NCBI GenBank assembly: GCA_000091205.1
Contig: AP006491.2
Direction: 5' to 3' (one strand)
DNA from: Cyanidioschyzon merolae
Taxonomy: Eukaryota
DNA: 64,000 nt
Shown here: positions 6,411-49,060 of the stretch, piece after piece
How positions within the stretch are numbered: the first letter of the stretch is position 1
Layout of the letters: each line of letters begins with the position of its first letter
The notes under the pieces: generated by a model
The model's database searches: none
The model's input: only the letters and a program-made list of their open reading frames with translations
What the model was told of the DNA's origin: nothing
Position numbers and translations under genes: made by a program

Positions 6411-8284
6411 GTTACGTAGCCGACGAGCGTACATTGAAGTACATCAGGAGTGCCGGGTTGAGCCCAGATGGAGGCAGAGGGGTACGAGGCCAAGATTGGC
6501 CTTTCGTATGGAGAGAACGAATTAGAGAAATTGGAATCGGGGTAGAATTTCAGGCGATGGAGCTGGTCAATGAATACATTACTTCTCTGAAACGGAAAGA
6601 ATGTCTCTCGGTCGCAGTGCCGAGGCGAGAACGTGTGACGAAAAGCACCAAAGTGAACAACCAGCAGCGAGGGAGACGTGTGCTCCAGTCTCTGGCTTTC
6701 TGCACAGCACTCATTTGCGCCTTTCTGGATTTCCATTATAGTCTTTCACCTTAATTGTATTCCATCATCAGGTGCGTATACTCAAATGCCTTTTCGCATT
6801 TCATAGCCAGAAGTGTTCGGATTGCGTTCATTTTGAAAAAATAAAGAGCCCGATGGAAAGTTACGGACACGAAAGTCGAGGATCCTACAGGGCCATCCTC
6901 GCCAGGTTCCGCTAAAAACCCGAAAAGAATGTTGTTTTTGCCTGTGAACGAGGGAAGAAGAGCAAGTGACAAAGAAGACGAAGATGGAGATGTTGATGGG
7001 TGATAGGCGGGACCAGGTGTTCGCGAGACTCGGCGATAACGAGACTGGAATCGCACTGAGGGCTCGAGCTTTGGCAATTCCTGCATTGATGAGTTCAGCC
7101 ACGGGCAATAAACACAAGGAATTTGTGAATTGAGACTTCAACGCCACCATCATTAGCAGACGCTCTACAGTGCTGAAGACGACGAGACCCGAGGAGCTAC
7201 GGCGATCCGAATACGTGTGGTATCCTCCCAGGCTCGTAGTGAACTGGTAGAAACGGATGCCGATACCAGACTGCCGGTCAAAAATGCAAGGAGTCGTCGG
7301 TGCATGGGTAGATCTATTTATTCACCGTTCTTGTAGAACGTTTTCTGTTTTATTGAGAGCAACGATTATCTTCTGCTGCTGCATCCTCAGCACTTTTCTG
7401 CAGTCACGACAGCAGGCAAGTTTCGGCAGCCGAAAGCGCCCCTGCTGCCGCGTTCTCGATCCGCCATGAAAAAGCGTACGCAGATCATGCGATCCGGACG
7501 AGTGTGCATCTCCGGATGCTTGACTCTAGGTATGCCTATGTATTTGTATGAGTATGTGTGCCAAGAGCTGCAGCGATCTGATCACGAGAGTTACCGCTCC
7601 TCGAAGCTGCATGCGGTACAGCGACGGCTGGTCAAGGCGACAAGCAACCTGCGTACCAGAGGCATACGCTCGTGTACCAGCAGAGAAATTGCGGATGCAG
7701 CCGGGTGTGTACGTTTCAAGCGTTCGTGCACGCTACCAGTGAGCTTGTCGCTTTTGCACCCGACTGAATACAATTGGGGTAACGGACTTACAGGCCTCAT
7801 ACGGGCACTCCAAGTCGCAGATGCCAGCGCACAGGGCCTGCTGGTCGCCGGCCCGTCACACCGCTCGCTGCCTGGAATCGCTTCGTACGCCTTTGCACAC
7901 AGGCAGTGTCGAGGCGAGATCTCCACTAAATTCATGCACTCTACATGGAAACATCAAATGATGCTGCCTGTATGGATCCGAATATCATTTGATGCATCCA
8001 GACATGCTGTCGAATGCGGTGGAAGCACGACGTGTCCGATTTATCTTCCTGGAATGTGCACCAGTGCAGCAAGTACCCGAACGCTTGTTATACGGACGCA
8101 CGCCCTCGCCCGTTTCGTGGCGATGATTCCGTTTCCAGTGGCTAGCAGCGTCATGAGACTGGTATCCTCCCCGAGCGCCGGTTTGCTGAGGTCACTACAT
8201 CCCTTCCGTTCTGCCTGCATCCAGGCAAAACGCGGGCGCACAGCGCCCCCATTTCCACATCCGATACCGACACATCCATCTGGA

Positions 8285-12591: not shown

Positions 12592-13079
12592 TTCTCAGGG
12601 ATGCCGTGGCCGGCAGCTGATGCACAAGGGATCTCACCTGATTTGCATCCTAGTCTTACCCGGAATGCAGTGGTTAATGCACCAGCATCTTTAGGCGTGT
12701 AATGTGCCGCTGGTTCGTTTTAAGGGACGCACTGGCCGGTAGTGGATGCCCATCGATCTCGGCTGCTTCGCGTCTTCGGTGGACCGAAAATTCACTCAGA
12801 TATACGCCGAAATGTTTCGGTCTCTTTCGCTTTTCAAAGCATGCAATGCTCGTATGGAGCCAAATTCAGGCACTAGGACTTGCGGAATACTCTGAGGTGT
12901 CCCTTGGGCCAACCCTGCTTTGCAGTGTTTCGTGGAGACTGCTTACAGGCAGCGGCTAGTCTTGCTGATGCCGCTCGACACGGGTCTCGAAAAGGCGCTC
13001 GCGGTTCCGTGCGCGTCTGCGTCTGGAATGCCTTGGAGGTTTTCGTCTTTCCAAATATGCTGCACGAACCGGAATGCCT

Positions 13080-13455
13080 CAAGAGTTTCTTGGTCTGCAG
13101 CCTCTACATTCACATTAGAGCAATACGGGTCAACGGTTTCTTACATAGTTCTGGGATTCTTGAACCCGGCAAGCTTCTAGAGTATCTTGGTCTGCAGCCT
13201 CTACATTCACATTAGAGCAATACGGGCCAACGGTTTCTTACATAGTTCTGGGATTCTTGAACCCGGCAAGCTTCTAGAGTTTCTTGGTCTGCAGCCTCTA
13301 CATTCACATTAGAGCAATACGGGCCAACGGTTTCTTACATAGTTCTGGGATTCTTGAACCCGGCAAGCTTCTAGAGTTTCTTGGTCTGCAGCCTCTACAT
13401 TCACATTAGAGCAATACGGGCCAACGGTTGCTTACATAGTTCTGGGATTCTCAGC
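13080..13455. repeat. Intergenic minisatellite, ~97-bp unit x ~3.8 copies
   Basis: The unit tcttggtctgcagcctctacattcacattagagcaatacgggccaacggtttcttacatagttctgggattcttgaacccggcaagcttctagagtt recurs at about 13087, 13184, 13281 and 13378 with a few substitutions. Confidence 0.85.
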
Positions 13456-17044: not shown

Positions 17045-19071
17045 ATTGCCAGGTCTCAGCTCGCGCTCGCTGCGTGTCTTCGTGCCGCGCACACACCACA
17101 ACACCAACACGCAGTCAACGTCGCGTGTGGCAGGCATCGCTCGTCGACGCCTACCGTCACGACGCCGCCGGCGATGCGTCGCCGACGCCGCACGCATCGC
17201 GTTTTTGGTGCGTGCATGCGTGCGTGCTGGACGCCCGGCGCTGCGGCATCGAGCATCGTCGACGGTGCAGCGATCGGGGCAGCGAGATGCGGTGCGCGCA
17301 GACCTGGACATCATCGCCTCGGATGCGTCGCGAACGTTCGATTTTTTTCATAGACAAGACGTTTACTTGTGCCAGCTTTCTCCGATTATGCGCATTTATG
17401 TTTTCTTACCTCTTTTGTGTGTTATTTTTTGTGCGCGGTGAGGTATCCATCAAACGTCCTACCTCCAAGTTACATTACCTATACTGATTCTCGGATATTC
17501 TGGTCGTTTCATACGTTCTATCGGGTGCGCTTAGTACCTAACCTAATCATACGCCTTTGGAACTTAACCGCTGGAGCAGATAGTTCATAGAGTTAGGAGG
17601 GCTTTTCCATACCACAGAGGGCGTCGGTTCGAGGCGTGGTTCACCCGACGTAGAACTGGGATTCGTCGTCAGTGTGTGCTCGGACAGTCTGCGGATGCAG
17701 GCTTGCCTTCGCTGCACGACACGCTGGAGAAACTTCACTGTTAGGATATATCGTGGGGGCCGCCTCTCTCCTTCGTGATCATGCATGGAATGCGTTGTTG
17801 TCGGTTGGCAATGCGGGTTTGTGCTCGACACTCATACAGAAGGTAGGCGCAGAAAGCGCACTAAACCCGTGTGCGCATCCGATTCGCTGGACCATCCGCC
17901 TAGAAGGTAGCATGTGAGTTTGTTCGCCACTAGTGAGCGCTGAGGCTCTGTTAGCGGACCATCAGTTGCCAGTGCTGCACTCAAAGTGAGTGTCCGGCCG
18001 TCGACTATCACGGTGATGCCCAGCTGCTGCTGTCCTTCAAGGAGATCGCTGCGCTCCTGCTTTCAGCGCGGCCACTGTAACAGTAAATATGTCAGCGTCT
18101 CGGGGATCTCGTCTCGACAGCAGGGACAGTGTGATTCCCAGTGCGATTCCAGTGCTCCTATCCGGCTTAGAGCCGGTGCTGCTAGTCAGAAACCACCAAC
18201 GTGGATTTTGGCGAGCCACTGGGTACCGCGAGCAAGTCCCGGGAATTCCAGCGCCTCCCACCAGTACTTGCATGTGTATGCTAGGTTGTAGTTCCGGTAT
18301 AGAGTCAAGCCGGCGTTACGGGCGCGACTGGTTCCGTGTCTACGTTCCCATATTGGTGTTCGGACCGTTCGCTTGAGGCGTCTGAAGTCTTCTACATTCC
18401 TGGGGAACGATTGGAGCGGACAGCCTGCTTCTGGGCGTCGCGCTGGTCCGAGTGGACTCCGAGTACGTCGCTTCGTGCTGCTGCAAGCATTAGGTCTGTC
18501 TGCGCAGCTTACTGGCTCCCAGCATGATTATGTAGTCCGAACCCGTATCCAATGAACCACAACTTGAGGCGACGCCCTCACTGGCATGGCAAAGCCGTTC
18601 TGTCTCCGTGCCGCATCTGCTCCAGGGGTGTAAGCGCGATTGCGAATGCTCAAGGAAGGTTACGTGCACAGTGGAATGCACGAAATAACCAGTACATCCG
18701 AAAGGAAGTACAAGTAATGGAACCTGAAGGTAGGGTCCAGCAGCATGATGGGCGCTTTCCCGAATGTCAATACCGATCTATCGCGCAATCTGGCCTCCAT
18801 GGTCCATAGAAGCGCTTTGGCATCGGCGGGAGAACCGGGCGTCGCCCCGCGCTGCGCTCCATGGAACAATGCTCAAATCACGAATAAATTGTACTTTATT
18901 AAATCTGTATGTACTATGATGTACAAAATAGCATTCCAGGAATCCCGAGATCACACACGCGCTCGAGACGTGAACTGTCTCGTCACTCTCGGCTACGGCT
19001 TCATCTTCCTCGTATTTCTTCGCCATTAGATACGAGTGCGGTAAGATTCTGGGCTGAAGTTTTCAATATTA

Positions 19072-20995: not shown

Positions 20996-23950
20996 TCACC
21001 AGTCTGCATTTGGATAGAGAAGGCTGTCCCCTTGACTGATATCGCGATCCCTGTACGCGTCCACGGTCTCAAGCGGCTCCGAGTACGCATCCGAGGCGAC
21101 CGGATCAATGACGTCACTGTCGAGCGCGTCCGAGTCCGACAGCAGCGCCTCTGCCGCAGCCAGGCGTGATCGAGCGGGCGCTGCCGACGCACGTCTCGCA
21201 GCTCGCAGGGCTTGTCGCGGACTGGTGACCTCGACAACGGCGGCCGGATTCCCCGTCCGACGCATGGACTGGCGCTTCGCCGCGGCCGGCGACATCGGCC
21301 GCCGCATTGGTCGACTAACACCGCGGATGCCGCTGTGCACGTGAGGATTCCGTCGGCGTATCACGAACGGCCCATCCGCGGAAACAGCATCGATAGGCGC
21401 TGCAGCACGAGCGGCTGTCGGTTTTGGCTCGGCTGCGAGCTTTCCCGATGCCACAGACGCTGCAAGGTCAGCGCGTCCGCGATCGCCTGCCAGCTGTGCA
21501 TCATCTTCGGTCACCAGAACGGTATCCATAGCTTCCAACCGATGCACCAAAGAGCGCAGCTGCTGCTCTAACTCCAATAACGCGGATTTCGGAGGCTGCT
21601 CATAGGCATCGTGCTCCTCATCGGCGCTAGACGCGTTCATTTGCTCGGAATCGTCTTCGGCATCCGTCGCGACGGTGCCGGGTGGCGCAGCGCGCGCCCG
21701 CCGTGCGTGCAATCCGCCGCTCGCGCGTTGCCATGCGTGTCGCCGCTGCAGCGCCATCACGCGTCCGTGCGCCGCTGCCGCCTCCGTGTCATCGAGCGCC
21801 GTGCCGCGTGCTGCAACCGCTGATTCCGAGCGTAGCGCGCGACGTTGCCGCCGCTGGCGATCACGTGGCGGGAAATCGGGGACAGCACGCGACGCGCGCT
21901 GCTGCTGCTGCTGCTGCTGTCGATGACGCCGCTGGTGGCGGCCGATGCGTGCGCCGCTGCACGCATCATCGGCGGACACGTATGCTGCGGATGCATCCGA
22001 GTCGTCGTATCGCGATGCTGCTGAAGCATCGCTGTCGAGCGTTCGGGGCGCAATGAACAGCTTACGCCACCAGCGACCGAAGCGGACACCTACCTCCCAA
22101 AGGCTGTCGTTCAGGGCACGTCGGCGCCGCCGCTCACGACGGTGTCGCTCGGGAGCGCGGCGACTGCGAGCGCGTGAGCGCTCCTCATCGGAGCAGGCAT
22201 TGCGCGCCAGCGGATCGCGATAGCGCCCGGCGCCGTGGCGCACGCTCCCGGTATGGCGCGGGACGTTCTCCGCCAGCGCCGCCTCACGTCGAATGAGCTG
22301 ACGGAGTCGCATGACGCGCGCTATAAGCGCATCGCGATCTCGAGCCAGGGCTGAGCGCTCGCTATGGAGCTGGGCACGCTCCGCGCGTACCGAGTCACGC
22401 TCTTTCTCGATACCACTCAGTTTCTTGAGCAGCAGACGGTGTTCACGACGAGCCTCTTCGAGCTCGGCGCGTATCTGGGCGACATGCAGTGGCGTGCGTC
22501 CGTCGGCGCTCGCGTGCGAGGTATCGCGAGTGCGCGTCGCCGCCTCCTGCCGCGCCTCGTCCATGCGTTCAGGTTTGGCGTCGGCGGTGCGCCCAGGGTC
22601 GTGCGCTTCCTGCTGGACGCCGTTCGCTCCCGCTCCGGTATCGGATGCGGACAGCGGCGGTGGCGGCACCGTGCGCTCACCAGCTGCGGCATTCGATGCA
22701 TCCGGATTCGCTGGCGTCGAAACAGGCCGCCCAGTGTCGTCCGTGGAGAGCGCTGCCGCCGGTGCCGCTGCTGCCACTGCCTCCGTTCCAAGACGCTGCA
22801 GCTCAGGTGCAGCGTTTCCAGCGGCCAGCGCCGGTGCCGGACGTGCCACGCTCGGTGCGCGCGGCGGTGGACCAGCGGGCGATTCTGTCGATGCTGCGGC
22901 TCTGAGTTCCCCGGGCCGCATCGGTGCAGCAGATGCGGTCTGCAGTGCAGTGCCACCAAGCTCATTGTCCGTGGCGAATGCTTGGAATTTTCGGATGAAC
23001 GTGGTGCCAGCAGGAAGCGGCTGCTCTTCTGTCACTCGATCTCTGGCTGCATCCTGAGTTGGACCCGGATTCACTGGCGGTTTGCGCACGCTCGGTCGCG
23101 GGCCAGGCTCGGGTCCCGTCGACGCTTCAATCGTTTGAAAACGTCGACGGAACATCTCTTCGCCCTTGCCTCCGCCGAAAACTGCGCCAGCACCCGCATC
23201 ATTCAGTACCGGTGCCGTACTGGCGGCAGTCTCGACCGCGGCACTCGTCGTTGACGGCGGTCTGTCGTCGGTGCCGGGCGGCCAACGAGCACGCGCACCG
23301 CGCTGCGCCTGCCCGGGGAGCGGTCGTACAGCCGCCGGGGGCGCTCGTGAGCGCTCCCGCTGCGATACGGTGCTGAGCTCGTTCGCAGGCTCGGCTTCGG
23401 TAGGCGCTATACCGAGTTTCTGGTTATGGCGCTCGACTGCACGTTTCCACCTCTGCATCGGGTTGAGATTCTCCTGCTCGAAGGAGTCGTCGGCTTTGCC
23501 GATATTCGTCGCAGTTGCTGCAGCGAGAACTTCCGCTGTAGGTCGTATAACGGATATATTCCCCGCATTAAAAGGACGTAAAGGAGCTGCATTCGGTGCC
23601 CCTGTTGACGCTTCAGATCTGCCAGCGGCGAGCGCCGGTTTGCGAAACACCGATGGCGCACCTGCAGCTGTACCCAGCCGGCTCGTAGGGACGCTTTTCC
23701 CACTAGTCGTGTTCGTCCCATCCCCTTTTGGTGCCGGGGGTTTATTGGCTATGTTCGATGTAGAGAGTGTGCTGTATATCGGTCTCATCCTGTGAGCGAA
23801 GTAAAAGAGAGACGGTGAGAACGCCAAAGCACAACCGGGATCGGTTTGAAAATTTGAATCGGAGGGAAAACGCTGCGGACACCTGCATGCCGATCGATCG
23901 CGCACGCGCGCACCCGTCCGGCGCACGGTGTCGCCGCTGGCAGCGGACAT
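20996..23950 (-). CDS. Hypothetical Ala/Arg/Pro-rich low-complexity protein with a coiled-coil segment and a poly-Gln tract
   Basis: 984-aa ORF with a coiled-coil block (IRAELEEARREHRLLLKKLSGIEKERDSVRAERAQLHSERSALARDRDALIARVMRLRQL) and a QQQQQQQ run. Several overlapping ORFs in other frames of this GC-rich region make the call weak. Confidence 0.3.
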   Translation of the reverse strand: MSAASGDTVRRTGARVRDRSACRCPQRFPSDSNFQTDPGCALAFSPSLFYFAHRMRPIYSTLSTSNIANKPPAPKGDGTNTTSGKSVPTSRLGTAAGAPSVFRKPALAAGRSEASTGAPNAAPLRPFNAGNISVIRPTAEVLAAATATNIGKADDSFEQENLNPMQRWKRAVERHNQKLGIAPTEAEPANELSTVSQRERSRAPPAAVRPLPGQAQRGARARWPPGTDDRPPSTTSAAVETAASTAPVLNDAGAGAVFGGGKGEEMFRRRFQTIEASTGPEPGPRPSVRKPPVNPGPTQDAARDRVTEEQPLPAGTTFIRKFQAFATDNELGGTALQTASAAPMRPGELRAAASTESPAGPPPRAPSVARPAPALAAGNAAPELQRLGTEAVAAAAPAAALSTDDTGRPVSTPANPDASNAAAGERTVPPPPLSASDTGAGANGVQQEAHDPGRTADAKPERMDEARQEAATRTRDTSHASADGRTPLHVAQIRAELEEARREHRLLLKKLSGIEKERDSVRAERAQLHSERSALARDRDALIARVMRLRQLIRREAALAENVPRHTGSVRHGAGRYRDPLARNACSDEERSRARSRRAPERHRRERRRRRALNDSLWEVGVRFGRWWRKLFIAPRTLDSDASAASRYDDSDASAAYVSADDACSGARIGRHQRRHRQQQQQQQRASRAVPDFPPRDRQRRQRRALRSESAVAARGTALDDTEAAAAHGRVMALQRRHAWQRASGGLHARRARAAPPGTVATDAEDDSEQMNASSADEEHDAYEQPPKSALLELEQQLRSLVHRLEAMDTVLVTEDDAQLAGDRGRADLAASVASGKLAAEPKPTAARAAAPIDAVSADGPFVIRRRNPHVHSGIRGVSRPMRRPMSPAAAKRQSMRRTGNPAAVVEVTSPRQALRAARRASAAPARSRLAAAEALLSDSDALDSDVIDPVASDAYSEPLETVDAYRDRDISQGDSLLYPNADW

Positions 23951-24181
23951 GTGCGTCGGTTCATCGCGGGCAGTGGTGTCTATATTGTGCCAGAAATGGA
24001 AACAAGGTACAGTGTTTCATGATGCGCCGTCCCGCAGATGACGTCGCTGGGGGCGTGTCCGTGAAAAGCCGCCTGCGAAGCGGTGTCCGTATTGTTCATC
24101 TAAAAGCAGGTATGTCTAGACGCTGATCGTTGCCCGCGCGCGCCGAGGATCGGGCTCCGCGCGGGACTCGCGCAGTGCCGA

Positions 24182-24880
24182 CTAGGGCTCCATTGGTGCG
24201 CCCGCATCAGGTAGAATGCGATGACGCACGAGCGCTCTGTAATGCTCGGGACGAAAGCGTCTAATGTACTCCGCTAATTTTCCCCGCACGATTGTCTCTG
24301 TCGATGCAATGCCTATCTCATCCGCGAATGACTGAATCAGCGTTTTCGCTGACGCAACGGCCTCCTGCATGATTGGACTGGTTCCGCTAAGCAATCGATC
24401 GTTATCGCGATATAGAACCAGTACTTCAATTTCGCCAACGGTGTAACCGTAATCCGTCCGATCCAGATCGATGTTCAAGGTCTGCCCGCGATAAACGACT
24501 TGTAAAGTTTCGCGCTCTGTCACGATCCGGGCAAACGGTGCTATGCGGCCTTCCCGAAGAGCCGTGTCCGGGCTCCACCCGAGCGCAGCCTCCACGTCTG
24601 CGAACTCGTCCAACTCTCGGTAAGTGTCCAGCGTAGCTGTGCGTGGCGTTTTTCCCCAAGGTATTTTGAGCTGCCACTGCAGCTCACGTTGCCGTAGCCA
24701 CCAGTCGCGCAGTGTTAGCGCCCAGGCATCTGGTACGTCAAAATAGGTATCCGTAAAGCAGGCAGTACGCAGCCGACGTTTCTCTGACACGATCGACGTC
24801 GACTCGAGCCTCTCCAGCAACCGTTGGGTCAGTTCTGGAGACAGCACAAACTTGCGCTCTACTTCAATGCTAGCCGTCAT
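24182..24880 (-). CDS. CYTH-domain protein (thiamine-triphosphatase / CyaB-like triphosphate tunnel metalloenzyme)
   Basis: Starts MTASIEVERKFVLSPELTQRLLE, which carries the N-terminal ExExK CYTH signature, followed by acidic beta-strand motifs (TDTYFDVPD...GYTVGEIEVLV). I chose the start at the ATG at 24880; the upstream part of the ORF is low-complexity. Confidence 0.55.
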   Translation of the reverse strand: MTASIEVERKFVLSPELTQRLLERLESTSIVSEKRRLRTACFTDTYFDVPDAWALTLRDWWLRQRELQWQLKIPWGKTPRTATLDTYRELDEFADVEAALGWSPDTALREGRIAPFARIVTERETLQVVYRGQTLNIDLDRTDYGYTVGEIEVLVLYRDNDRLLSGTSPIMQEAVASAKTLIQSFADEIGIASTETIVRGKLAEYIRRFRPEHYRALVRHRILPDAGAPMEP

Positions 24881-25126
24881 GGAGCAGGCGAGCGGACCAA
24901 CTCCAACCGGCCTGCGCAGTTTCGCGTACCCCCAGCAGACACTTCGGAAACGCCCGACAAACAGCCGCTCCTGGCGTCCCGGGTGCGAAACGCCTCGCGC
25001 ACACAGACGCGTTCGTGCTGCACACCCGTGTCGACTTGAGCTCGCGGGCGCAACGAAGCCAGCCAGACTCGGTCTCGAATCAGCAAAGAGGTACCCCTCG
25101 CCAAACGCCATTCTTAAGTCGAACGA

Positions 25127-25860
25127 CGCCAGCGGTGTACAGTAGTGGCGACCGGGCCGCCCTAGAAGAAATGTCTCCGACTGATGTGCAGAAGCCTGCC
25201 CGTCTTTTTGGACCGGCCACCTACTACTGCTTCAAACTTTTTCTCATATAGTTTAACTTTGAGCGGTTTTCCAACCAAATTCTCTATCGTCGACCCGAGA
25301 GGTCTTTCCTCTCTCACCGCACATTTCCTTATATTGATTGCGGCGTTAAAGTCTCGGTTCACAAACTCCATACGTTTCTTGCCATTGATTGTACTTACTA
25401 ACGCAAGCAATCCTCGAACTTTCGCTATCCTTTCCATTTGCTCTTCTGTCAGCGGTCCGTACTTTTTTTATATCCTCAGGTCCCCGCTGGCACTTTTCCA
25501 TCTCGACCCTCTGAAGTGTACAGCCCAGTTCATGGTGTGTATACAATGCTCGAAATCCATCTACCGGTATTATAACAAAACGCCGTGCGCACTCCTTATA
25601 CGTTCTCGTCGTGGGATCTGGTGTACACCCTTGTTGGGTCGTCCAGCGCCTTGCTTCGTACGCTACTACGAGCCTTTGACTTTCATCCTCCTTCAAGGCA
25701 CTCAACTCACTGAAAAAAAAATGCGAATGCCCGATACTCCCTACATTATAGATTCATGCGGAGATCAAACTGCCCGCCATCCGAGATTGCATGTACGGAT
25801 CTCAGCGCTCGCGTCGGAAGCATCGGCAGTGGACGAGCGCCTTGTTGTGCACTGCCTGTC
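25127..25860 (-). pseudogene. Inverted, frameshifted fragment of the TnpB/Fanzor-like nuclease 3' region (RuvC-III end) plus its ~160-bp 3' flank
   Basis: Minus-strand ORFs 25346..25705 and 25162..25437 together reproduce [53 protein letters not shown]...PEDIKK...[19 protein letters not shown] from the full copy at 29.5-30.0 kb. They sit in two different frames because of 1-bp indels, and amino-acid identity is about 80%. Homology to the reverse complement of 29480..30132 starts sharply at 25127. Confidence 0.75.
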
Positions 25861-25891
25861 CACTGGACACGCAAGGTACTTTCGTCGGAAC

Positions 25892-27904
25892 ATGGGCGTT
25901 GAGAATGCTTTAGGCGGTTTCATAGTAACGAATACCTTCAGCGGTAGCGGTGTACGTTTCGTCGTACGGAACCGGAGCCAGTGCAACTCGCTGGTGGTGC
26001 CTGGGTTCCGCGCGAGGCGGCGTACGCGCTGCGGAGCACTTGCTCGCGTACGGGGGACAGATTCGGCGCCAGAGGGTACCCCCGACGCCGAAGCGAGGCA
26101 CCGTCCCAAGCCTGGTGAGCGAGGGCTCTTCCCGCTCGTTGCACCGCGTGAGGATATCGGGCGCTATTTCGTTGGAGAGCGTCGGATTTTGGACGAACGC
26201 ACAGCGCGCTATCCGCTACGCTCGACGGTAGAGGAAGTGCTGGCGGGCATTACGGTGGCGATGGCGCTGCTGCCTGCGGCGGTGTCTTGCGCGTTGGCCA
26301 CGGGCGTGCCGCCGCTCGCTGGAATCGTCTCGACTGGTCTCCTGTGTGCGATAACTGCCGCACTGGGAGGACGCCCTGGCATGATCTCAGGAACATCTGC
26401 AGCGCTCATTATTCTGCAAGCGCCTCTCTATCAACAGTACGGCGCAGCAGCGGTCGCTGCCGCCGTGGTGCTCAGCGGTATACTCCAGCTTTTCTTCGGG
26501 ATCTATCGTTTGGGAAAGTTTGTGCGGCTGATATCGTACCCTACCTTTCTGGGATTCATCAGCGGCATCGCCATCTTGACGGCGACAAGTCAGGTCTATG
26601 CGTTTCAGCTTCCAGCGGGAACCGGGCTGAGCCCGGGCGCACCCTGGCTCCAGGGTAACATGTTGCGTGCAGCGTTGATCGTCGCAGCGCTCGCCGCTGG
26701 AGTCGCCCATGTATGGCCCTTGATCATTCAGCGACTACAGCGCCGGCGCCCCGATAGTACCCATCGGTGGCAGCACCGCCTCGCTGAGCTGTTGCGTTGG
26801 CTCCCAAGCCCACTAGCGGGCATCCTCGTGGCATCCATTTATGCGGAGGTGACGCAAGCGCCTGTGCGGCGGCTTGGCGACTTTTTGCGCGACACGCTGG
26901 CACAGTCAGGGGCCATTGGCGTATCCTGGGCAGCCCTGCCGTCAACACCGCTGGCATGGATGGCCATTCTGAGCACCGCGCTTGGTCTCGCATTCATCGG
27001 TCTTTTGGAATCTCTGTTAACCATGACTTTGGTAGACGAAGTCACGGAATCGAGGGGTAGCACGCGTCGGGAGTGTCTAGCGCTTGGGGCAGGGAATATC
27101 GCCGCGGGCTTATTCGGTGGCGTGGGCGGCTGCGGCCTCCTGGGCCAGTCGCTCCTGAACACGAAATCAGGGGGACGCGGGCGTCTCTCTGGACTGACTG
27201 CGGCGCTGTGTCTTCTCGTGTTGGCGAGAAATCCGAGCGGACTGATGATTCGGATTCCCGTCCCAGCCATTGCAAGCCTTATGGTGCTGGTGGCGCTGGG
27301 CTCGTTCGAATGGGCATCGCTGCGCTTGTTTCGTGCCATACCTCTCGCTGATTCGCTGACCATTGTGAGCGTTGCCCTGATGACTGTAGCAACGCGCAAC
27401 GTCGCCCTGGCGGTCCTGTTTGGTGTGGTATTCTCGGCGCTGGTCTTTGCCTATAAAGCGTCGCGACGCATTACCGCCCAGAGCTTTATTTCGGAGGACG
27501 AGCAAACGCGCGGATGGCGGGGATACCGGATTGACGGTCCGCTGTTCTTTGGCACGGCGGAGCGCTTCAGTCGTCTGTTCGACCCAGCACGGGATCGTGC
27601 CGAAGGCCATGAGCACGTGATCATCGACTTCTCTGGTAGCCGCATCTGGGACGCGACAGCGCTAGAGGCGCTAGACTCCCTAGCCCGTCAGTATAGGAGC
27701 TATGGTATTCGGCTGCATCTGTGGGGTCTGTCTCGAGATAGCGCACGTCTGCTGCGCGAGGCACGCGCCTACATCGACGAGAGTGTCACGAACGAGAAAG
27801 CGCTCTACTTGTACGAGCGGGTTGTAGCCGACTATCCCACAAACGATAGTCTAGAGGTTGAGTACGAGCTTTTCGCGAAAAGAGAATCGGGGAATGCAGC
27901 GTAA
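25892..27904 (+). CDS. SulP/SLC26-family sulfate (anion) permease with C-terminal STAS domain
   Basis: VEEVLAGITVAMALLPAAVSCALATGVPPLAGIVSTGLLCAITAALGGRPGMISGTSAALIIL is the SulP N-terminal signature. About 10 further TM segments follow, then a STAS-like end (YRIDGPLFFGTAERF...HVIIDFSGSRIWDATALEAL). The stop is TAA. I chose the start at the ATG at 25892, because the 5' 236 codons of the long ORF are antisense to the Fanzor-like fragment. Confidence 0.8.
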   Translation: MGVENALGGFIVTNTFSGSGVRFVVRNRSQCNSLVVPGFRARRRTRCGALARVRGTDSAPEGTPDAEARHRPKPGERGLFPLVAPREDIGRYFVGERRILDERTARYPLRSTVEEVLAGITVAMALLPAAVSCALATGVPPLAGIVSTGLLCAITAALGGRPGMISGTSAALIILQAPLYQQYGAAAVAAAVVLSGILQLFFGIYRLGKFVRLISYPTFLGFISGIAILTATSQVYAFQLPAGTGLSPGAPWLQGNMLRAALIVAALAAGVAHVWPLIIQRLQRRRPDSTHRWQHRLAELLRWLPSPLAGILVASIYAEVTQAPVRRLGDFLRDTLAQSGAIGVSWAALPSTPLAWMAILSTALGLAFIGLLESLLTMTLVDEVTESRGSTRRECLALGAGNIAAGLFGGVGGCGLLGQSLLNTKSGGRGRLSGLTAALCLLVLARNPSGLMIRIPVPAIASLMVLVALGSFEWASLRLFRAIPLADSLTIVSVALMTVATRNVALAVLFGVVFSALVFAYKASRRITAQSFISEDEQTRGWRGYRIDGPLFFGTAERFSRLFDPARDRAEGHEHVIIDFSGSRIWDATALEALDSLARQYRSYGIRLHLWGLSRDSARLLREARAYIDESVTNEKALYLYERVVADYPTNDSLEVEYELFAKRESGNAA

Positions 27905-28399
27905 AGACAACGGGCATCGCTAGAGGGCATCGCAGAGGAGCAACGGACCCCCGCAGGGCGCGAGCGGGTCGTGCGCTCGCTCCTGTATCATTTTCGGTGC
28001 CGTTTGGTTACATCCGCTTACGCAGATCGATAAGTCGAAACAGACAGCGGTGATTGCCAAGCATCGCGTCGTTCCTGTGCGCCCGAACGGAGATGTTGTC
28101 AGCGTTCCGCTCCGCAACGTTCCATCCATTGCACCGAAGTGCGCCCCGTCGACAACACATTCCAGCGTGGGATCAGGCGCACGAAGTTTCCCTGGCACAG
28201 CAGCAGTGACGGACATCAAAACAGTCGAGGTTTCGGAAGCGTTTTCGACAGGACCTTGATTTGTCGCCTGATGCTTGGCACAGGGGAAACGCGGAGGGGA
28301 AATGAGCGGGTTCATGCCCTCCACGAGAATCACGCCGAGTACCGCCCTGAGGGTACTCGATTCAGGGGTGATTCGGATCTTTAAACCTACGGGACGATC

Positions 28400-30132
28400 A
28401 AGTACCATACGGACCTGAAGAACCATTTGACGATGAACCTCGAACGCTTCATGAAACGCTCCGTCTATGCACTCTACCCGGGCATCGCTCGCAAAGGAAT
28501 ATGGGCGATTATCAATGGCATCACGAAGGATTGCCAGAATGAACAGGAGATCGAATTCTTCGACAAGAAGACATCACGCAGGAGAAAGAATGAAGCTCCT
28601 GTAATCCATTGGGTTATACAAGAGCATCGTGCCGTACTGGGGCTGGCGAACCCAACAGAAAAGTTATCAGAGATGAAAAAAAGATAAGAAAAGATACGAT
28701 CGCCTCATCCTGCGCTATTTCGTGTTCCTGGACCAAGGACTGGAACGCGAGGCATAGATGAAGCTGAGTGAGGAGAAAAATGATGCGTCGGAGAAACGAA
28801 AGGCTTTCCTAATGGGGAAGCACCCTAACGTCGTTCCGTTGAACAACATCGAGTCACACTGTGTGACTATCGACTCCAGAGTCCTTCAAGGCATCATGAA
28901 GGAGATCAGTCCCGAGTTCGATGTTAGCAGGGAGGAGTTCTCCGGTGAAAATCGGGAGATGTACGGGAAGAACATCTTCGATGTCAATCGTCTCAAAGTG
29001 AGCAAATAAAAGGTATTCGCTGGGATGATCGAAACCGATGGAGTAGCCATGTGTGTACAGTATCGGAGGTTGAAGGTGGATCGTCCCATCGCGCCTTGGG
29101 CTTCGCCCGTGACGAAGCATGAAGATAAGATGGAGATGGGCCCTGAAACGTGTAATCCCCAGGATAACGACCTTGTCGTTGGCGCGGACCCCGGGAACAC
29201 GAATATCGTAACCATCGCAGTACCCAAGCGTGCGGAAGATGGCATTGACGGTAACTTGCCTCAGAAAGACATGCGTCTGTTGAGATTCTCGAGAGCGAGA
29301 TACCATCGAGAATCGGGAATCATGAATGCAAGCAAGAAAATCGAGACGTAGAATGCAGGAATGAAAGAGCACCTGGAAGCTATGACCAAGTTGACTAGCC
29401 GAGGAGCGGACTCGGAAGCTTTTCGGAAATTCATGGAAGTTCGTGTTGCTCACTGGAAGGCGCTGTGGAAAGAGTATACAAAGTCCCGGTAGGCTTGTCT
29501 GCGTATGAGTCTATTCCGTGGGATGCAGCGGGCGTTCGCAAACTTTTTCAATGGGTTGAGCGCCTTGAAGGAGGACGCAAGTCAGAGGCTCCTGGTAGCA
29601 CACGGAGCAGGGCGCTGGAAGACCCGAAAAGGATGTACACCAGCTCCAACGACAAGAACGTACATGGAGTGCGCAAGGCGTTTCGTTACGATACCGGTAG
29701 ATGAGTTTCGAGCGTCCTATACGTACCATGAACTGGGGTGTACGCTCCAGAGAGTCGAGATAGAAGAGTGCCAGCGGAGCCCTGAAGATATAAAAAAGTA
29801 CGGACGGCTGGCGGAAGAGCAAATGGAAAGGAGGGCGAATGTTCGAGGACTACTTGCATCAGTAAGAACAACCAATGGCAAGAAACGTATGGATTTTGTG
29901 AACCGAGACTTTAACGCAGCCGTCAATATAAGGAGATGTGCGGTGATGGAAAGAAGACCTCCAGGATGAACAAGAGTGAACTTTGTTGGACAATCATCTA
30001 AAGTGGAACTATATGAGAAAAAGTTGAAACGAGTAGTAGGTGGCCGGTCGAAAAACCTGGGAGGCGTCTGCACATCAGTTGGGGACGTCTTGTCTAGGGC
30101 GGGTTTCCCGCCACTACTGTGCACCGCTGGCG
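28400..30132 (+). mobile_element. TnpB/Fanzor-like (OMEGA-type) element: nuclease gene plus a conserved 3' terminal non-coding region; the left boundary is approximate
   Basis: Sampled stretches here are 53-57% GC, about 4 points below the window average, with A-rich Lys codons. The nuclease ORFs run 28427..29969. The conserved 3' flank 29970..30132 is also present, inverted, at 25127..25290, and homology breaks sharply at 30132. Confidence 0.65.
28427..29969 (+). CDS. TnpB/Fanzor-like RuvC-fold nuclease (putative RNA-guided endonuclease); the reading frame is interrupted, so it is possibly a pseudogene
   Basis: RuvC-I-like motif [17 protein letters not shown] in ORF 29025..29351. C-terminal region [57 protein letters not shown]...[23 protein letters not shown], with the TnpB/Fanzor VDEyRTS-like and RuvC-III DxNAAxNI signatures. 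28758..29969 is a single frame broken by in-frame TAA (29007) and TAG (29349, 29490). The N-terminal Lys-rich ORF 28427..28687 is in another frame. Confidence 0.6.
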
Positions 30133-30222
30133 GCAGCGTTTTTCTTTGAAAGGCGTGCGGTGTGCGCAGCATATCGACATAGTTCGTTATCGTGCACCAT
30201 AGTCTCTGTTCACTGCACCGGC

Positions 30223-31821
30223 ATGGTACACCCAAACGCTGGCGCGCAGGGCGCCGAGCTCCTGTTCTGTGGCTCCTGCAAATGGGACACACAGGGGCGC
30301 GACCGCAAAGGCGCCATCGAGTACGGGGAAGAGGTACTAGCGCCACATCGTCTCACGGGCTCGGTCACACTGGGAGGTCTCACGACACCAGCTGACCGAG
30401 CACAGATGCTGCGGATCGTTAGCGGACCGGTGGCAGCGCACGCCGTGCTCATTTTAACTGACGGACGTGCGCTGGCAATAGGGCGAAACACGCACGGTGA
30501 GCTCGGTATAGGTACAGCGCGGCGCTTTGCTCCAGTGTTTATGCCTGTCGTCTTCATCAAGGGCGGGCGCTGCACCGGCGCCGCCTGTGGTCGCACACAC
30601 ACGCTCTTCCTCATGGACGACGGCGTGGTGTACGCGACCGGGGCGAACGATGCAGGTCAGCTTGGTGTCGGTGCGCGGGGCATCAGCGCCAGCGGGGCCA
30701 ATGTACCGGCAGCTGTGACCCCGATCCGCCTGACGTACCTCGCAGAACATATGGGCGTGCGAGCAGCCCAGGTAGGATGTGGAGAACAGTTCTCCGTCGT
30801 GCTCGCTGATGACGGCTCGCTCTACACTTTTGGAACACATCGGGACGGTGTCCTGGGACTGGGCACCACCGGCGAAGTCATTGGCAAACAACGCATGGAG
30901 GTGGAGAGCGAACCCCTGCCGCGACGGGTCACGCGCTTCGTGCGCTCGGACGGCATCGTCGTTGCTCTCGATGAGTCCAAAAGCATGGACGAACAAAGCG
31001 AGGATATACCCCGCTTCACACAGGTAGTTTGTGGTCAGCGGCATGTGGTTGCTCTAGACTCCCGCCACCGCGTCTGGTCGTGGGGATTCGGTGGTTATGG
31101 TCGTTTAGGTCATCGAACGCCGAACGATGAGCTGCGTCCCCGATGCATGGAGTTTTTCGAGCGTTTGCGCGACGACCGCCGGCGATGTGTCAAGCTATAC
31201 GCTGGCGCCTCCTGCTGCTATGCGCTGACCGAAATGGGCACCGTGTACTTTTGGGGCATCACAAAAATGACCGGTGAAGCGACGACATCGCCGCAGATGC
31301 TCTACGATTTGCACGGCTGGAAAATTCGAGATATCGCCGTGGGCATCTCATCGACGATGATCGCTTGTGAGGAGTGCACGACGATCGCCTGGGGTCCGTC
31401 ACCCGCCTACGGCGAGATGGGTTTCGGTGAGACCGTCGTTGGAAGGAGTTTTGCAGGCAGGACAGGCGTACTCAAAAGCAGTACCCAACCACGGATTGTC
31501 GATCCGCTGAAAGGCGTCCAAGTGAGTCAGCTTGCGATGGGGGCTTTTTTCACGTTCCTCCTGCTTCGACCCGAGGAGGTGCAAGCGTCAGACGACCAAG
31601 GCACGAAGGTGCAAGCACTCCCGACGCTCTCGTGGGATGCGCATGCCAATATCGGCGCGCAGCCTGTACGCGGTTTGACGATCCTCGACGCAAGCTCGTT
31701 GGGGTCCCGGCGCGGTCGGAAACCCGGCAAGGTCGCTGCTCGAGCGACCAGCAGCGCGACTAAAACCCGCGTAACCTCAGTGTCCGCGGTCGTTGTTCCG
31801 GAAAAGAGGCGCCGCACCTAG
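30223..31821 (+). CDS. RCC1 (regulator of chromosome condensation)-repeat protein
   Basis: Repeated beta-propeller blades: HGELGIGT...GRTHTLFLMDDGVVYATGANDAGQLGVG...GEQFSVVLADDGSLYTFGTHRDGVLGLG...GQRHVVALDSRHRVWSWGFGGYGRLGH...CYALTEMGTVYFWG. I chose the start at the ATG at 30223, because the 5' 61 codons of the ORF overlap the Fanzor-element terminus. Confidence 0.7.
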   Translation: MVHPNAGAQGAELLFCGSCKWDTQGRDRKGAIEYGEEVLAPHRLTGSVTLGGLTTPADRAQMLRIVSGPVAAHAVLILTDGRALAIGRNTHGELGIGTARRFAPVFMPVVFIKGGRCTGAACGRTHTLFLMDDGVVYATGANDAGQLGVGARGISASGANVPAAVTPIRLTYLAEHMGVRAAQVGCGEQFSVVLADDGSLYTFGTHRDGVLGLGTTGEVIGKQRMEVESEPLPRRVTRFVRSDGIVVALDESKSMDEQSEDIPRFTQVVCGQRHVVALDSRHRVWSWGFGGYGRLGHRTPNDELRPRCMEFFERLRDDRRRCVKLYAGASCCYALTEMGTVYFWGITKMTGEATTSPQMLYDLHGWKIRDIAVGISSTMIACEECTTIAWGPSPAYGEMGFGETVVGRSFAGRTGVLKSSTQPRIVDPLKGVQVSQLAMGAFFTFLLLRPEEVQASDDQGTKVQALPTLSWDAHANIGAQPVRGLTILDASSLGSRRGRKPGKVAARATSSATKTRVTSVSAVVVPEKRRRT

Positions 31822-32732
31822 TGCGGTGTACGCTCGCGATACAGAGGCCTCGCGAACACCGTTGAGGCTAGCCTGATCCGCTGCTGCGCTGAGAGATGCG
31901 CATGCCTCCATTCTGTAACCGCTGTGTAAATCTACCGCTCACGTGTGCATCCTTGCACCGATGAAGTATGATTCGTGACTTGGCCGGCGCGACACAGGCG
32001 ACGGGAGCGCACTCACCGAGGCATCAACACAATGAGGCATGGTCGGGGTTGCAGGGTGCTGGTGATGCGGCAACTGCAGCCTGCGTTTCGGTGTCGTGCG
32101 AGGCAGCGACAAGTTTGTCGCACGACATGTACCAAGAGAAGTGGAATAGAGCACTGGGAACCTGCCCATTGGTGACGGTTGCCACGTTCCCAGTGTGCGC
32201 GTGTTTGTCGGTTTACTTGGGGAGTGAACACCTAACGCGGCGTATGCCGGCGCGCAGCAAAGTAAGCATGATGCATCTCCGATAAAGAATGAGTCTGTTG
32301 GCTAGCCTGGATGATGAACGCTGGTGTCCATGCGCGCCGCGTCCGAAAACGTAGGTGCTAGACATACGCTGCCTCATAGGCGGGATGTCTTCTGCCCGCT
32401 ACATGGAGCACTCAAGTCCTTTTCATCGACATTGACACTGGGCAGCAGTGCAGATCGGGCGGTTATCCGAGGCGCCGCTGTGCAGCCATCAACGTTCAGT
32501 ACGAGGCTTTGCTGCCTTGCTTAGCACCAAATGCGGTATGGGTAACAGACGCCATTTTGTAGCTTGCCCATCTTCTGGGGATGCAAACGTTCCCATCAAT
32601 CAACGAGTTCGCCGGCGCTCCGTTCCGAACACCAAAACAGGGAATTACGGGAAACGAACGCCACCCTTGCGTCCTGCCCTGCAACCATTCGCCGCAAACC
32701 GCGCACTCACGCCTCGGCTGTTGCCACTTTCA

Positions 32733-45728: not shown

Positions 45729-47859
45729 AATTTGAGTTGCGGCCACGGCGCGCTACACGCTTTCCAGAGTCGGTAGCGAGCGTTCTCAGCATGGACTGAG
45801 GTGACTGCGTCCAAGCTGATGTCGCTTTGCAGTTCGCGGAGCTTGTGCGATGGCCCCGGTGGGCCTCACAGAGAAGACGGCGGGAGAGTCGATGTTGGCA
45901 GGCCAGTGCGCGGCGCGAAAAACCGCCACCTGGACGGGGATGACGCTAGACGCTGCGCCCTGCACCGCATGCTGGCAGATCGGGTACCCGCTGGGGATTC
46001 AGGGTTCGCACTGAGCATCATTCGTTGGACAAGGAGCGCCGACTTGTGTCATGGGGCACGTTTCGCCCCGAACGATGCCGCGCTCCGTTGCTAGGTTTCT
46101 GTTTTAAAGCATCAAGAAACGGTCGGAACGAGAAACTCGTGACGACGCGTGGGTAGTTGACCGACACGAGCCCCTTAGCTGCCGCGCGGTTCGCGTCGAA
46201 GCCGCCCGTTCCAGAACCGAGTGCCGCCATCGACCAGAGCAGAAAACCTCGCAGGCTTTCGGGGATAAGCGCACCGTTGCGCCACCGTCGGCGCTTGTCT
46301 TCGTCAGCGTCAGAGCAGTGAATTCCGGAATGCCTGTGTTAGCACGCCCTTTTTGCCGTTGCATGTCTCGTGCGCAGATTCCAACACCATGAATGAATCC
46401 TCTGGAGGGCCGCAGAGAGACTGCGTGTTATCACTGCTAGCTTGCGCAAAATGCTCGCACGTGTGCAAGTCAGTTTTTCCACGGGCAGCACGTGGATCAG
46501 TCGCCATGCTTGTAGCGCTCATGTGGAACGTCAAGCACCGAAAACGAAACGTACCCAACAGTTTCTATACGACTGTATGCTCGTCAAATCATCCGGCTCC
46601 CTATGTTCTTCGATGAAACACTGTAAAAGATGCCGCAAGATCTTGAGGTTCCGTACTGTAGACAGGACCGGCAATGAAGAAACATAGACAGACAAAAGGA
46701 AAAGCGCGCGTCTGCCGGAGAACGCCGCGCGTTGAACGACGCATGATCAGTTCCGTCCTGAAAAGCGAACGCCTGTTATCGAAGGGCCTGGTGGTCATCT
46801 CAAGCGATGAGACTCGATTCAGCGGAAATAGTAGACCTGAATACGGGTACCCACAGAAGAGCAGACCGCACATCCTTAAAAGTGCCCAGCGAGCATTCCG
46901 TCAAAATCAGTCCCAGCGGCGATTCAATCTTGTAGATGGGTGCAAATCACCAAACGGGCAGGATTCTTTGAGATCGCATCTTTCATTGAATCACCTTGTC
47001 GTCGCTCTTTCCCTTATTCTTCTGTTCTGCTGCCAGATAACTTTCCAACATTCAACTGCGGCTGCAGAACACGCAGCTGAGCTCGGCAACGAGCTGCTCT
47101 TCGTGTCAACTGCTTCTCCCTGGTCCAATCCAGTCGAAGCCGTCTTCGCTGGTGTCAAACGCCATTTATACGCTAACCGATCAACAGATAAGTCGTTCTC
47201 TACCCTCACCAGCCCTGTAGTGCTGTTTATCTCCACTGTTCTTGCGCAGGCGGGAGCGGAAAGACCCGCTCCACACTGTGGGCATACTCATCACGTTGAG
47301 AGTGAAGAAAGGCACTGGAGTATTGATAGGCACAAACGCGCATCGAAGAGGCGAGCTTTGGAAACACCGTCCATCCAGTACGTCCGAACCCCGAGGGAAG
47401 ACACAAGTACAGAGTATACCAACCAAAACAATACATCCCAGCCAAGTAGAGGAGAGGGCGAAGGAGCTGGTCTCTGTAACCAAGCACGAAGCATTCGAGC
47501 AACACCGCGAGTAGCATTGGCAGAACTGGTTCAAGGTCTCTCGTTTACAGTGACGATGGAGACAGACACGATATGCATCTGCTTGCACTGGGTGAACCAT
47601 TCTCCTGAAATGAGCAAATCGATTCATGTTCAAATGCTCCCGGTACATGAAGACGGAGACTTGTCGATGAGCGTAGATTCCGGCTAAAAAAGGCGTCATG
47701 GCCGTCGTCGTATCCCCAAATGAAGAGGACTGAGCCACAGACTTGGATGGTGAGCAGATGAAGCGGCTCAGCAATTCCAGGAATCCGTGGTACAGTCTGT
47801 CGGGCATGATGAACCCCGGGAGACATTCCACCACTTCGAATGACGGCGACAGGACCCGC

Positions 47860-48300
47860 TCGCCGTTCTCGGGCCTCTGAACATCGCATCGAACAGGATT
47901 GGATGCTTTATATGCTTTTGTCGGCGGGTAAAGTAATGGATCATATAGATGATCTTCGGTCGGCGTCCATGAAGCCACACGTATGTCGGCGACAGTTTCA
48001 GTCGTCCAGAGGCCAGCAGCGTGCAGTCGTCAATGTCTTGCATGCAATGAATAAGAAAACGACCGAAAAGTCGTATCGTTTCCTGGTAGCATATGGCGCT
48101 GGACGTGCCGTAGCGCGCAAGGGCTGCACTCCTGCTCCGCCCGGACCAGAGCATTTAAGGTGTGTAGGAAAGGATTCTTTACGATTCCAACCGAACCGCT
48201 CAGGATGACATGTGCGCATCACGAGCACGAGTACAAGCAGAGACTCGTAAAGAGAAAGCAGATGAAACAGCGCGGGGTGCCTTTTGTGGTATACGGTGCG
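47860..48300 (+). pseudogene. Third, heavily degraded fragment of the TnpB/Fanzor-like nuclease gene
   Basis: ORF 47840..48208 contains [50 protein letters not shown]. This parallels [49 protein letters not shown] in the 29.5-kb copy. ORF 48160.. continues frameshifted with FTIPTEP.RMTCAHHEHEY, matching [20 protein letters not shown]. Confidence 0.45.
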
Positions 48301-49060
48301 CTCACCGAACGTCAGATGGAAGGCCAGTCACAGCGGAGAGGCCTGCCCTGCAGCGATTCCGCCAGCAACCGTGCGCGCACGCATCTACCGCTTCGAGATT
48401 TGAACGCCCCGAGCAGCGTTGGGAAACGCCTTGGAATTCCGAAGTATCCAGCTGCTCTACCTCAAGCGAACTTTCCATGGCATCGTTTAGGACTCCATGC
48501 AGGCATCGTACTGAATCACCGAAGACTTTCGATGGAAACAACTCAGTCGCAAGTGGGGACAGGGCTGGATGCTCGCGTGCAGCTCGGCACTCGAATGCCA
48601 CAATCCAGCAATGCATCGAGGCTGGAGTGCTGCACGCAAGGATCTACACAGGGAACAATGGCCCGGTGCACTTGATCAGACATCATCGTGTCCGACAATT
48701 CGATACGTTTGCGTATGTGCGTCGACCGTTGCCGTAAATGGATTATATACGCGTCTTGATGACAAGCTGACGCATGTTGTCCAGATGCAGGTCGAGATGC
48801 CTGCTCGCGAATCCCGATATGTCTCTACCGTTGACGCCGTGGCAAGCGCGCCTCCGCAGCGATGCACGGATGCTGCGTGTGCGTGGCACGCATCCGTCAC
48901 GTGACATCATCCGTGTATCGCGGTGCGTGGCAGCACTCTGTGGACACGACGACGCGGGATGCACATGCATCCCGGCGTTTGCTTCGGATGTCTATAGAGC
49001 GTCCGTTTTTTTCGTCTTTTATCGATAGGTGAGTCTGGATCGGATGCTGAACCTGGGCCT

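Follow-up and report, generated by a model that had tools for sequence, protein, structure and literature searches.

A duplicated sulfate permease gene between inverted Fanzor1-element relics in Cyanidioschyzon merolae

Introduction

The genome of Cyanidioschyzon merolae holds one family of Fanzor1 elements, CMe-1A, with ~150 copies that are ~80% identical to a consensus of ~3 kb (Bao & Jurka 2013, PMC3627910). The family was reported to be without terminal inverted repeats (TIRs), its target site duplications (TSDs) were given as undetermined and it was left unclassified, while the 5' 635 bp of its consensus were found to equal TE-N2_CMe (PMC3627910). Here, we analyze a stretch of 64,000 nucleotides of C. 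merolae DNA (GenBank assembly GCA_000091205.1, contig AP006491.2; referred to as the window) in which the gene for a SulP sulfate permease lies between two decayed CMe-1A copies in inverted orientation. These copies resemble the published family in their host organism, in a Fanzor1-type open reading frame (ORF), in an identity of ~80% between copies and in lacking recognizable TIRs and TSDs; as in the published family, many copies are degenerate and some relatives carry intact ORFs. Assignment to CMe-1A was based on organism, Fanzor1 ORF and copy identity and was set against the published description. In contrast to the locus studied here, that description covers single ~3-kb elements and not an inverted, 5'-truncated pair around a host gene, nor the duplication of such a block.

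Other well-characterized systems offer further points of comparison. Non-allelic recombination between Alu- or Ty-type repeats shares with our locus a high-identity tract bounded by dispersed repeats, locus-specific outer parts, a gene copied to a new chromosome and the lack of a TSD. However, the repeats at our locus are only ~80% identical and form an ends-outward inverted pair at each locus. Composite transposons such as Tn5 and Tn10 likewise consist of two inverted element copies that flank a cargo, occur at more than one locus and show similarity that stops at the outer ends. Unlike in these transposons, we see neither a transposase nor a TSD, the arms are dead, 5'-truncated and different between loci, and it is the 3' end that faces outward on both sides, in an element whose two ends are normally unlike. 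TnpB proteins of the IS200-IS605 type, which act in homing, and the Fanzor nucleases of solved structure (8gkh, 9cf0 and 9cer) belong to the same protein family as the gene carried by our elements, as judged by profile match. Here, however, both copies are pseudogenes and are known from sequence, and homing by itself does not carry cargo to a non-homologous site.

As a model alga, C. merolae combines a minimal genome with very few paralogues, and a recent inter-chromosomal duplication of SulP is therefore a clear case in which to follow the origin of new gene copies. Genomes of the class span 8.7-17.8 Mb (PMC13353863). Built from an element family that is already described, the locus provides one more case of gene duplication associated with repeats, in a genome that is very compact. 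Both the inversion and the duplication of a nutrient transporter are marked by dead Fanzor1 elements, which probably also mediated them. The locus also advises caution, as element ends beside gene starts need not signal exaptation, and the existence of two SulP loci matters in gene-targeting experiments.

Results and discussion

A repeat search and a BLAST comparison of the window with itself identified an inverted repeat in which positions 25764-25127 on the minus strand match 29498-30132 on the plus strand with 81.0% identity over 638 bp (E=1.6e-171). Between the two arms lies the SulP gene (25892..27904, plus strand), which has 670 codons, encodes Sulfate_transp and STAS domains and yields a 670-residue protein 100% identical to BAM79957.1 of C. 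merolae 10D. The left arm (25101..25764, minus strand) is a 5'-truncated 3' fragment of CMe-1A and the right arm (28206..30156, plus strand) is a 5'-truncated copy with a Fanzor1 pseudogene; the element 3' ends of both point outward. A non-element spacer of 127 bp (25765..25891, plus strand), itself a member of the duplicated block described below, precedes the SulP start codon, and 301 bp with homology only to other copies of the block (27905..28205, plus strand) separate the SulP stop codon from the truncated Fanzor copy. A preliminary description of the window had already reported the inverted Fanzor-like repeats around SulP and the start codons of SulP (25892) and its two neighbors, a CYTH gene (24880) and an RCC1 gene (30223). 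All of these hold, in the case of CYTH with the support of the Cyanidiococcus orthologue. It had, however, placed the inner end of the left fragment at ~25860 and thus only ~30 bp from the SulP start codon, whereas DNA and protein homology agree on an end at 25764, at a distance of 128 bp.

To place the arms within their family, five independent element 3' ends were compared. Identity was 77-82% in every pairing, giving a star-like pattern, and because of this uniform distance the two arms are to be regarded as ordinary, old and distinct members of the CMe-1A family; the preliminary description had already taken them for independent or ancient insertions of one family.

Gene order was compared with two relatives, Cyanidiococcus yangmingshanensis (L005) and an organism represented in JGI metagenomes (L006/L007). 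Both share with the window the order aldolase - catalase - large gene - CYTH - RCC1 - L24 - ... - ABCE1 - S23. Their CYTH and RCC1 genes are divergent and directly adjacent, with spacers of 1069 bp (L005) and ~820 bp (L006/L007), and these two spacers hold no SulP and no Fanzor sequence. The SulP genes of the same relatives (L002, L003) are found in the order RPL13 - eEF1A - UQ_con(-) - SulP(+) - DUF155(-) - WD40 - ADK, and none of these SulP neighbors occurs in the 64-kb window. In Cyanidium caldarium, the locus tags of SulP and RCC1 belong to different chromosomes. Since the CYTH-RCC1 spacer is empty in the relatives and their SulP gene lies elsewhere, the ~5-kb block between CYTH and RCC1 is shown by gene order to be a derived insertion, with SulP not native to this site. 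Non-coding flanks were too diverged to add to this comparison: alignment with the empty sites or SulP flanks of the relatives gave scores at shuffle level, even between both relatives, and an exact 13-mer (TTTTTCTTTGAAA) common to the window and the L006 RCC1 upstream region was not above the shuffle maximum.

These results bear directly on the model put forward in the preliminary description, in which two CMe-1A copies inserted around a resident SulP gene and their termini were exapted as promoters or 5' untranslated regions (UTRs) of SulP, RCC1 and CYTH. The model gains from the age and distinctness of the arms and from the small amount of non-element DNA before the start codons of SulP (127 bp) and RCC1 (66-91 bp). 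Against it, the insertion site is empty in two relatives while the SulP locus is conserved elsewhere, the orthologous SulP, CYTH and RCC1 loci are free of Fanzor-derived DNA over +/-10 kb, CYTH and RCC1 work side by side in these relatives with no element present, and the block is duplicated at ~99% identity, as detailed below. We thus consider insertion around a resident gene very improbable. The RCC1 start codon lies 91 bp from 30132 and that of CYTH 247 bp from 25127. Without the block, the spacer DNA amounts to only ~220 bp next to CYTH and 66-91 bp next to RCC1. Both starts are close to element ends because a block of ~5 kb landed as a unit in a short bidirectional spacer, and promoter exaptation is unnecessary for explaining their positions. 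Judging from the length of the non-element DNA, it is possible that initiation occurs inside element DNA for SulP and for RCC1.

C. merolae 10D encodes two SulP proteins that fall into one cluster at 90% identity, BAM79957.1 on the 810,151-bp chromosome and BAM79879.1 on the 739,753-bp chromosome. Between the two proteins, 5 of 670 residues differ (~99% identity). The chromosomal context of both genes was deduced from consecutive accession numbers together with metagenome contigs. On the 810,151-bp chromosome, to which the window belongs, the series reads BAM79956 (CYTH), 79957 (SulP), 79958 (RCC1) and 79959 (L24), and on the 739,753-bp chromosome BAM79878 (UQ_con), 79879 (SulP), 79880 (DUF155) and 79881. 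Because BAM79879 sits between UQ_con and DUF155 in this numbering, the second SulP copy is shown to occupy the ancestral UQ_con/DUF155 locus. The N-terminal extension of BAM79879 (MPDTPHIIDSCGDQ...) is the translation of the equivalent of window positions 25727-25891. This extension reads into the inner end of the left fragment, and a CMe-1A fragment is therefore also present upstream of SulP at the ancestral locus.

Flanking sequence of the second locus was obtained from metagenome contigs that are 96-99% identical to the window. One of them (L010) reads WD40(+) - DUF155(+) - cassette - RCC1, and another (L011) reads CYTH - cassette - UQ_con(+) - eEF1A(-) - RPL13(-). Each joins one flank of each locus and both probably represent assembly paths through a near-identical repeat of 4.25 kb. 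A reciprocal translocation between 10D and MS1 was considered as the source of these hybrids and rejected, as the only one reported involves chromosomes 3 and 19 (PMC13353863, Fig. S3). At the ancestral locus, DUF155 adjoins the fragment side of the cassette and UQ_con adjoins the Fanzor side. Compared with the relatives, SulP is therefore inverted relative to both of its neighbors there, which bears out an earlier suspicion that the SulP region had been rearranged.

The near-identical tract common to the window and the second SulP locus in closely related strains extends from 25120 to ~29365 with 98-100% identity, and both of its ends lie inside CMe-1A-derived sequence. On the left, L010 and the window have the same sequence inward of 25120, but just outside they match at only 13/21 positions; the left tips of the two loci thus differ at 8/21 positions although the adjoining DNA is identical. 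On the right, L011 is 98-100% identical up to ~29365 and continues with a different CMe-1A 3' part of ~80% identity. The right-arm 3' parts of the two loci are 80.6% identical, no closer to each other than to unrelated copies. A further contig, L012, presents a third left flank with its own CMe-1A 3' end, which is ~80% identical to the window up to ~25665 and ~99% identical beyond. All tract ends (25120, ~25665 in L012 and ~29365) accordingly fall inside CMe-1A sequence, and the outermost parts of the arms are locus-specific and ~80% identical. The earlier statement that the locus is not a recent segmental duplication is therefore correct for the arms, which are 77-82% identical in a star-like pattern, and incorrect for the block, which has a second copy at ~99%.

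The third flank (L012 1-9212; ENA ERZ27247235 contig k141_399247, from an environmental strain) contains a gene of 894 residues with a faint POT1 match and a gene of 850 residues, followed by the CMe-1A 3' end. The 850-residue protein has no 10D counterpart among the listed cluster members.

Given the repetitive nature of the locus, we considered whether the second SulP copy or the bracket itself could be a misassembly of the reference or of metagenome contigs. Hybrid paths do occur in L010 and L011, and the short contigs L004, L008 and L014 break at or near repeat edges. However, an independent contig of 9.9 kb (L009) is collinear with window positions 22685-32589 at 99.2% and spans the whole cassette together with both window flanks, thereby independently confirming the arrangement seen in the window. 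Further, the reference annotation lists two SulP genes with different neighbors on two chromosomes. L008, which comes from the same sample as L011, has the window-type right-arm 3' part, so that both right-arm versions coexist in one sample. An artefact is thus scarcely credible.

We interpret SulP and the two inverted CMe-1A relics as a ~5-kb cassette that was probably copied between chromosomes by recombination or conversion between repeats, a reading in which we place moderate confidence. It would have begun at the ancestral locus, where two old CMe-1A copies came to lie on either side of SulP, inverted relative to each other. SulP would then have been flipped there, most simply via recombination between these inverted copies. 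Later, the SulP core would have been copied into the CYTH/RCC1 spacer by ectopic recombination or gene conversion, with dispersed CMe-1A copies serving as homology, and in one strain it would also have spread to at least one further junction. The outcome today would be two SulP genes in place of one and a CYTH/RCC1 spacer that is interrupted. Since both Fanzor genes are dead, the elements would act only as passive substrates of recombination. In these terms, the cassette is a transposon-associated gene duplication and not evidence for transposon ends as promoters. Both hallmarks of a repeat-mediated duplication are seen, namely a high-identity tract that ends inside dispersed repeats and a recipient site that is empty in relatives. 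Because the tract ends lie inside CMe-1A and the outer arms are locus-specific, recombination among dispersed copies is favored over clean composite transposition.

Several observations weigh against duplication through repeat recombination. Flanking sequence of the second locus was taken from close strains (99%), in contigs assembled from short metagenomic reads, and not from the 10D chromosome, with L010 and L011 being hybrids that take one flank from each locus. Two-sided gene conversion implies that the recipient spacer already held CMe-1A in both orientations, and repeats of ~80% identity are poor recombination substrates. Sequence specific to the locus is confined to 19-24 nt at the left edge and ~790 bp at the right edge. 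Moreover, similarity among loci ends at the same outer points (~25101-25105 and 30156), as would be more typical of a discrete mobile unit. No TSD was seen, as 25090-25104 and 30157-30170 share no direct repeat, and the non-coding flanks are too diverged for alignment with the empty sites of the relatives.

The common outer points lead to the main alternative explanation, a composite-transposon-like unit in which the inverted CMe-1A 3' ends served as termini, a putative transposition machinery of the family moved SulP as cargo and later patchy conversion blurred the outer arms. Three left junctions (window, L010 and L012) and two right junctions (window and L011) end at ~25101-25105 and 30156, respectively, a third left flank is present in L012, and an older ends-outward pair of Fanzor relics exists at 2519-2785(-) / 6981-7240(+). 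However, the right-arm 3' parts are only 80.6% identical between loci, the left tips differ at 8/21 positions beside identical DNA, and we found no TSD and no transposase ORF in or near the unit. CMe-1A was also reported to lack TIRs (PMC3627910), and the 5' and 3' ends of a natural copy are unlike. Movement as such a unit is therefore unlikely, albeit with a real chance of being correct.

Homology of the right arm to another copy begins at 28206 at the DNA level, and at the protein level it extends over profile positions 90-607 of 623, so that approximately the first 90 residues are missing. With ~1.95 kb compared with a consensus of ~3 kb, the arm has lost ~1 kb of its 5' end. Its coding homology (28232-30008, plus strand) contains in-frame stops at 28382, at 29007 (TAA in place of Q in intact homologues) and at 29349 and 29490 (TAG in place of W), i.e. 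four premature stops, as well as a frameshift near 28690. What had been described as a full copy starting at 28400 is thus a longer but truncated pseudogene. An alternative genetic code was considered as an explanation for the stops and rejected, as host genes have uninterrupted frames in the standard code and the stops stand where homologues have Q or W. The left arm encodes only the C-terminal third of the protein, in a decayed and frameshifted form (~25270-25763, minus strand) in which the E of RuvC-II is changed to G. Both Fanzor copies at the locus are pseudogenes and neither contains an intact ORF.

The right copy nevertheless retains the RuvC motifs, with the D of RuvC-I, the E of RuvC-II and the RD..NAA of RuvC-III. 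For its conceptual protein, 199 homologues with 60-78% identity were found, nearly all in JGI metagenomes and a few in ENA, some of them intact with ~590 residues. A widened profile was built from 36 family members, including relatives of 600-740 residues that came from a search of 1.84 billion representative proteins. This profile matched the solved Fanzor1 structures of Parasitella (9cf0, E=2.6e-19), Spizellomyces (8gkh, 5.9e-10) and Guillardia (9cer, 1.5e-4). The RuvC motif columns are invariant or nearly so among the 36 members, and the positions aligned with them in 9cf0 and 8gkh are the corresponding motifs. Other approaches were less informative. A Pfam search with the conceptual translation and intact homologues gave no significant family, a precomputed match to DUF8286 is weak, PF07282 matched weakly in just one relative (E=0.0023, under the curated cut-off), and a profile of the close family returned only a chance match to angiogenin from the PDB. 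In the zinc-finger region, which corresponds to the C4 motif of Bao & Jurka, the family reads ..TSYTHHELGC..(10)..EKC.. without a clear CxxC..CxxC pattern. An AlphaFold2 model of the Fanzor protein (mean pLDDT 33.8, pTM 0.19) was too poor for use. A scan of viral and prokaryote genome collections for further element copies yielded none.

The 3' ends of the elements were analyzed separately. A conserved 3' UTR spans 25128 to ~25270 (minus strand) in the left arm and 29970-30132 (plus strand) in the right arm, and with 78-82% identity it is as conserved as the coding part. In characterized Fanzor and TnpB systems, the guide RNA scaffold is encoded where this UTR sits. In an RNAalifold prediction, the UTR takes up a multibranch fold closed by GCAGTAGT/ACTACTGT. 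Its covariation, calculated from only five sequences, was no higher than in controls, with 50 of 500 shuffles reaching the observed value, and an Rfam search over 24800-30400 gave no match. Weaker similarity among copies continues for ~24 nt past both outer boundaries, to ~25101-25105 and 30156. These weakly conserved tips (25101-25127 on the minus strand and 30133-30156 on the plus strand) have a mean identity of 54% compared with 78-82% inside the element. Beyond the element 3' ends, where the flanks read GCAGCGTTTTTCTTTGAAAGGCGT and TCGTTCGACTTAAGAATGGCGTT, the RCC1-side and UQ_con-side flanks match at 22/25 positions, and the left flanks match between loci at 13/21 and 16/19 positions. The ~24-nt tips may be a variable end of the element itself, reflect a preference for certain targets or belong to a common promoter motif (TTC..GAA).

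A motif, TTCg.CTT..GAA.GGCGT, is partly common to the tips at unrelated loci (25101-25127 and 30133-30156; L010 6732-6757, L011 12231-12254 and L012 9208-9234). A hairpin can also form through pairing between these tips and the final bases of the element.

In light of these features, we considered an RNA-guided break, in which an active Fanzor1 protein acting in trans, carrying RNA of an element 3' end with the adjoining flank as its guide, would have cut a similar sequence in the CYTH/RCC1 spacer and repair would have copied the cassette into the break. The partial likeness of the ~24 nt beyond the 3' ends (22/25, 13/21 and 16/19), a 3' UTR as conserved as the coding part with a predicted multibranch fold and the existence of intact family members in metagenomes are all in line with such an event. 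On the other hand, covariation is weak (five sequences; observed value reached by 50/500 shuffles), Rfam returned no match, and the likeness of the flanks could simply result from a tip of the element that varies, or from a common promoter motif (TTC..GAA). In addition, ectopic homing would have no homology across the other side of the break. For the CMe-1A family, guide-directed cutting is read from sequence features, and we judge it improbable as the cause of the insertion. A broader proposal can also be made: ends-outward inverted 3' ends of Fanzor1 elements would form a mobile cassette architecture in Cyanidioschyzon, which moved a probably bacterial-derived SulP gene, and the ~24-nt tips would reflect a sequence-directed, possibly RNA-guided, choice of site. 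If true, this would be the first natural case in which a Fanzor-associated element relocated a host cargo gene. We regard this proposal as speculative, with a small chance of being right. An actively mobile or guide-directed cassette would, if real, bear on what Fanzor does for its host elements. Recombination or conversion between dispersed CMe-1A copies remains the explanation that we prefer.

Element-derived sequence also affects gene annotation at both loci. Alignment with the CYTH orthologue of Cyanidiococcus begins at Met78 of the long ORF, which corresponds to the ATG at 24880 and supports a protein of 232 residues, whereas BAM79956.1 is annotated as a CYTH protein of 309 residues starting at an ATG at 25111, inside the element tip. 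Similarly, BAM79879.1 is annotated as a SulP protein of 725 residues whose start lies inside the CMe-1A fragment at its own locus. The reference annotation thus probably over-extends the start codons of BAM79879 and BAM79956 into element-derived DNA. Two additional ORFs were rejected as artefacts of the purine-rich element strand: one that runs in frame from 25184 into SulP is antisense of Fanzor, and one with a GTG start at 30040 that runs into RCC1 results from antisense or read-through.

The left neighbor of the insertion site is the thiamine-triphosphatase-like CYTH gene (24182..24880, minus strand), and the right neighbor is the RCC1-repeat gene (30223..31821, plus strand), whose product falls into the 90% cluster of BAM79958.1. 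The mitochondrial L24 protein encoded in the window is identical to BAM79959.1. Outside the Cyanidiophyceae, the best homologues of SulP are bacterial, mostly from marine Gammaproteobacteria, with ~40% identity and no other eukaryotes among the top 120. This distribution suggests an old horizontal acquisition of the gene.

Further Fanzor-like remnants occur in the window. The relic pair at 2519-2785(-) and 6981-7240(+) consists of C-terminal parts with ends outward that are far more decayed than the arms around SulP (71.5% identity over 137 bp), and in both relics a stop replaces the R codon of the NRDFNAA motif. Between them lie ~4.2 kb of lower-GC DNA that include an ORF at 5541-6410 (Q-rich, with a PTVI repeat), and the next ORF (7466) begins a short way beyond the right relic. 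At 47476-48468(+), a third Fanzor-like relic, which is divergent, covers profile positions 292-602 with weak scores and is located within ORF fragments at 46674-48737.

Two copies of a different dispersed repeat lie in inverted orientation between the genes for aldolase and catalase (17458-17649(+) and 18471-18782(-)), and a further copy is found at the end of the window (63668-63830). The same repeat family is found in L001 (8380-8694), ~1 kb upstream of the CMe-1A copy of that sequence, and it may be related to the CMe-1A 5' part or to TE-N2_CMe. An origin of L001 from another species was ruled out, as its helicase clusters with a 10D protein. Finally, tandem arrays at 13069-13451, 53048-53461 and 58299-58673 have periods of 97, 69 and 123 bp, respectively, with central copies that are 95-98% identical; the latter two lie inside long ORFs.

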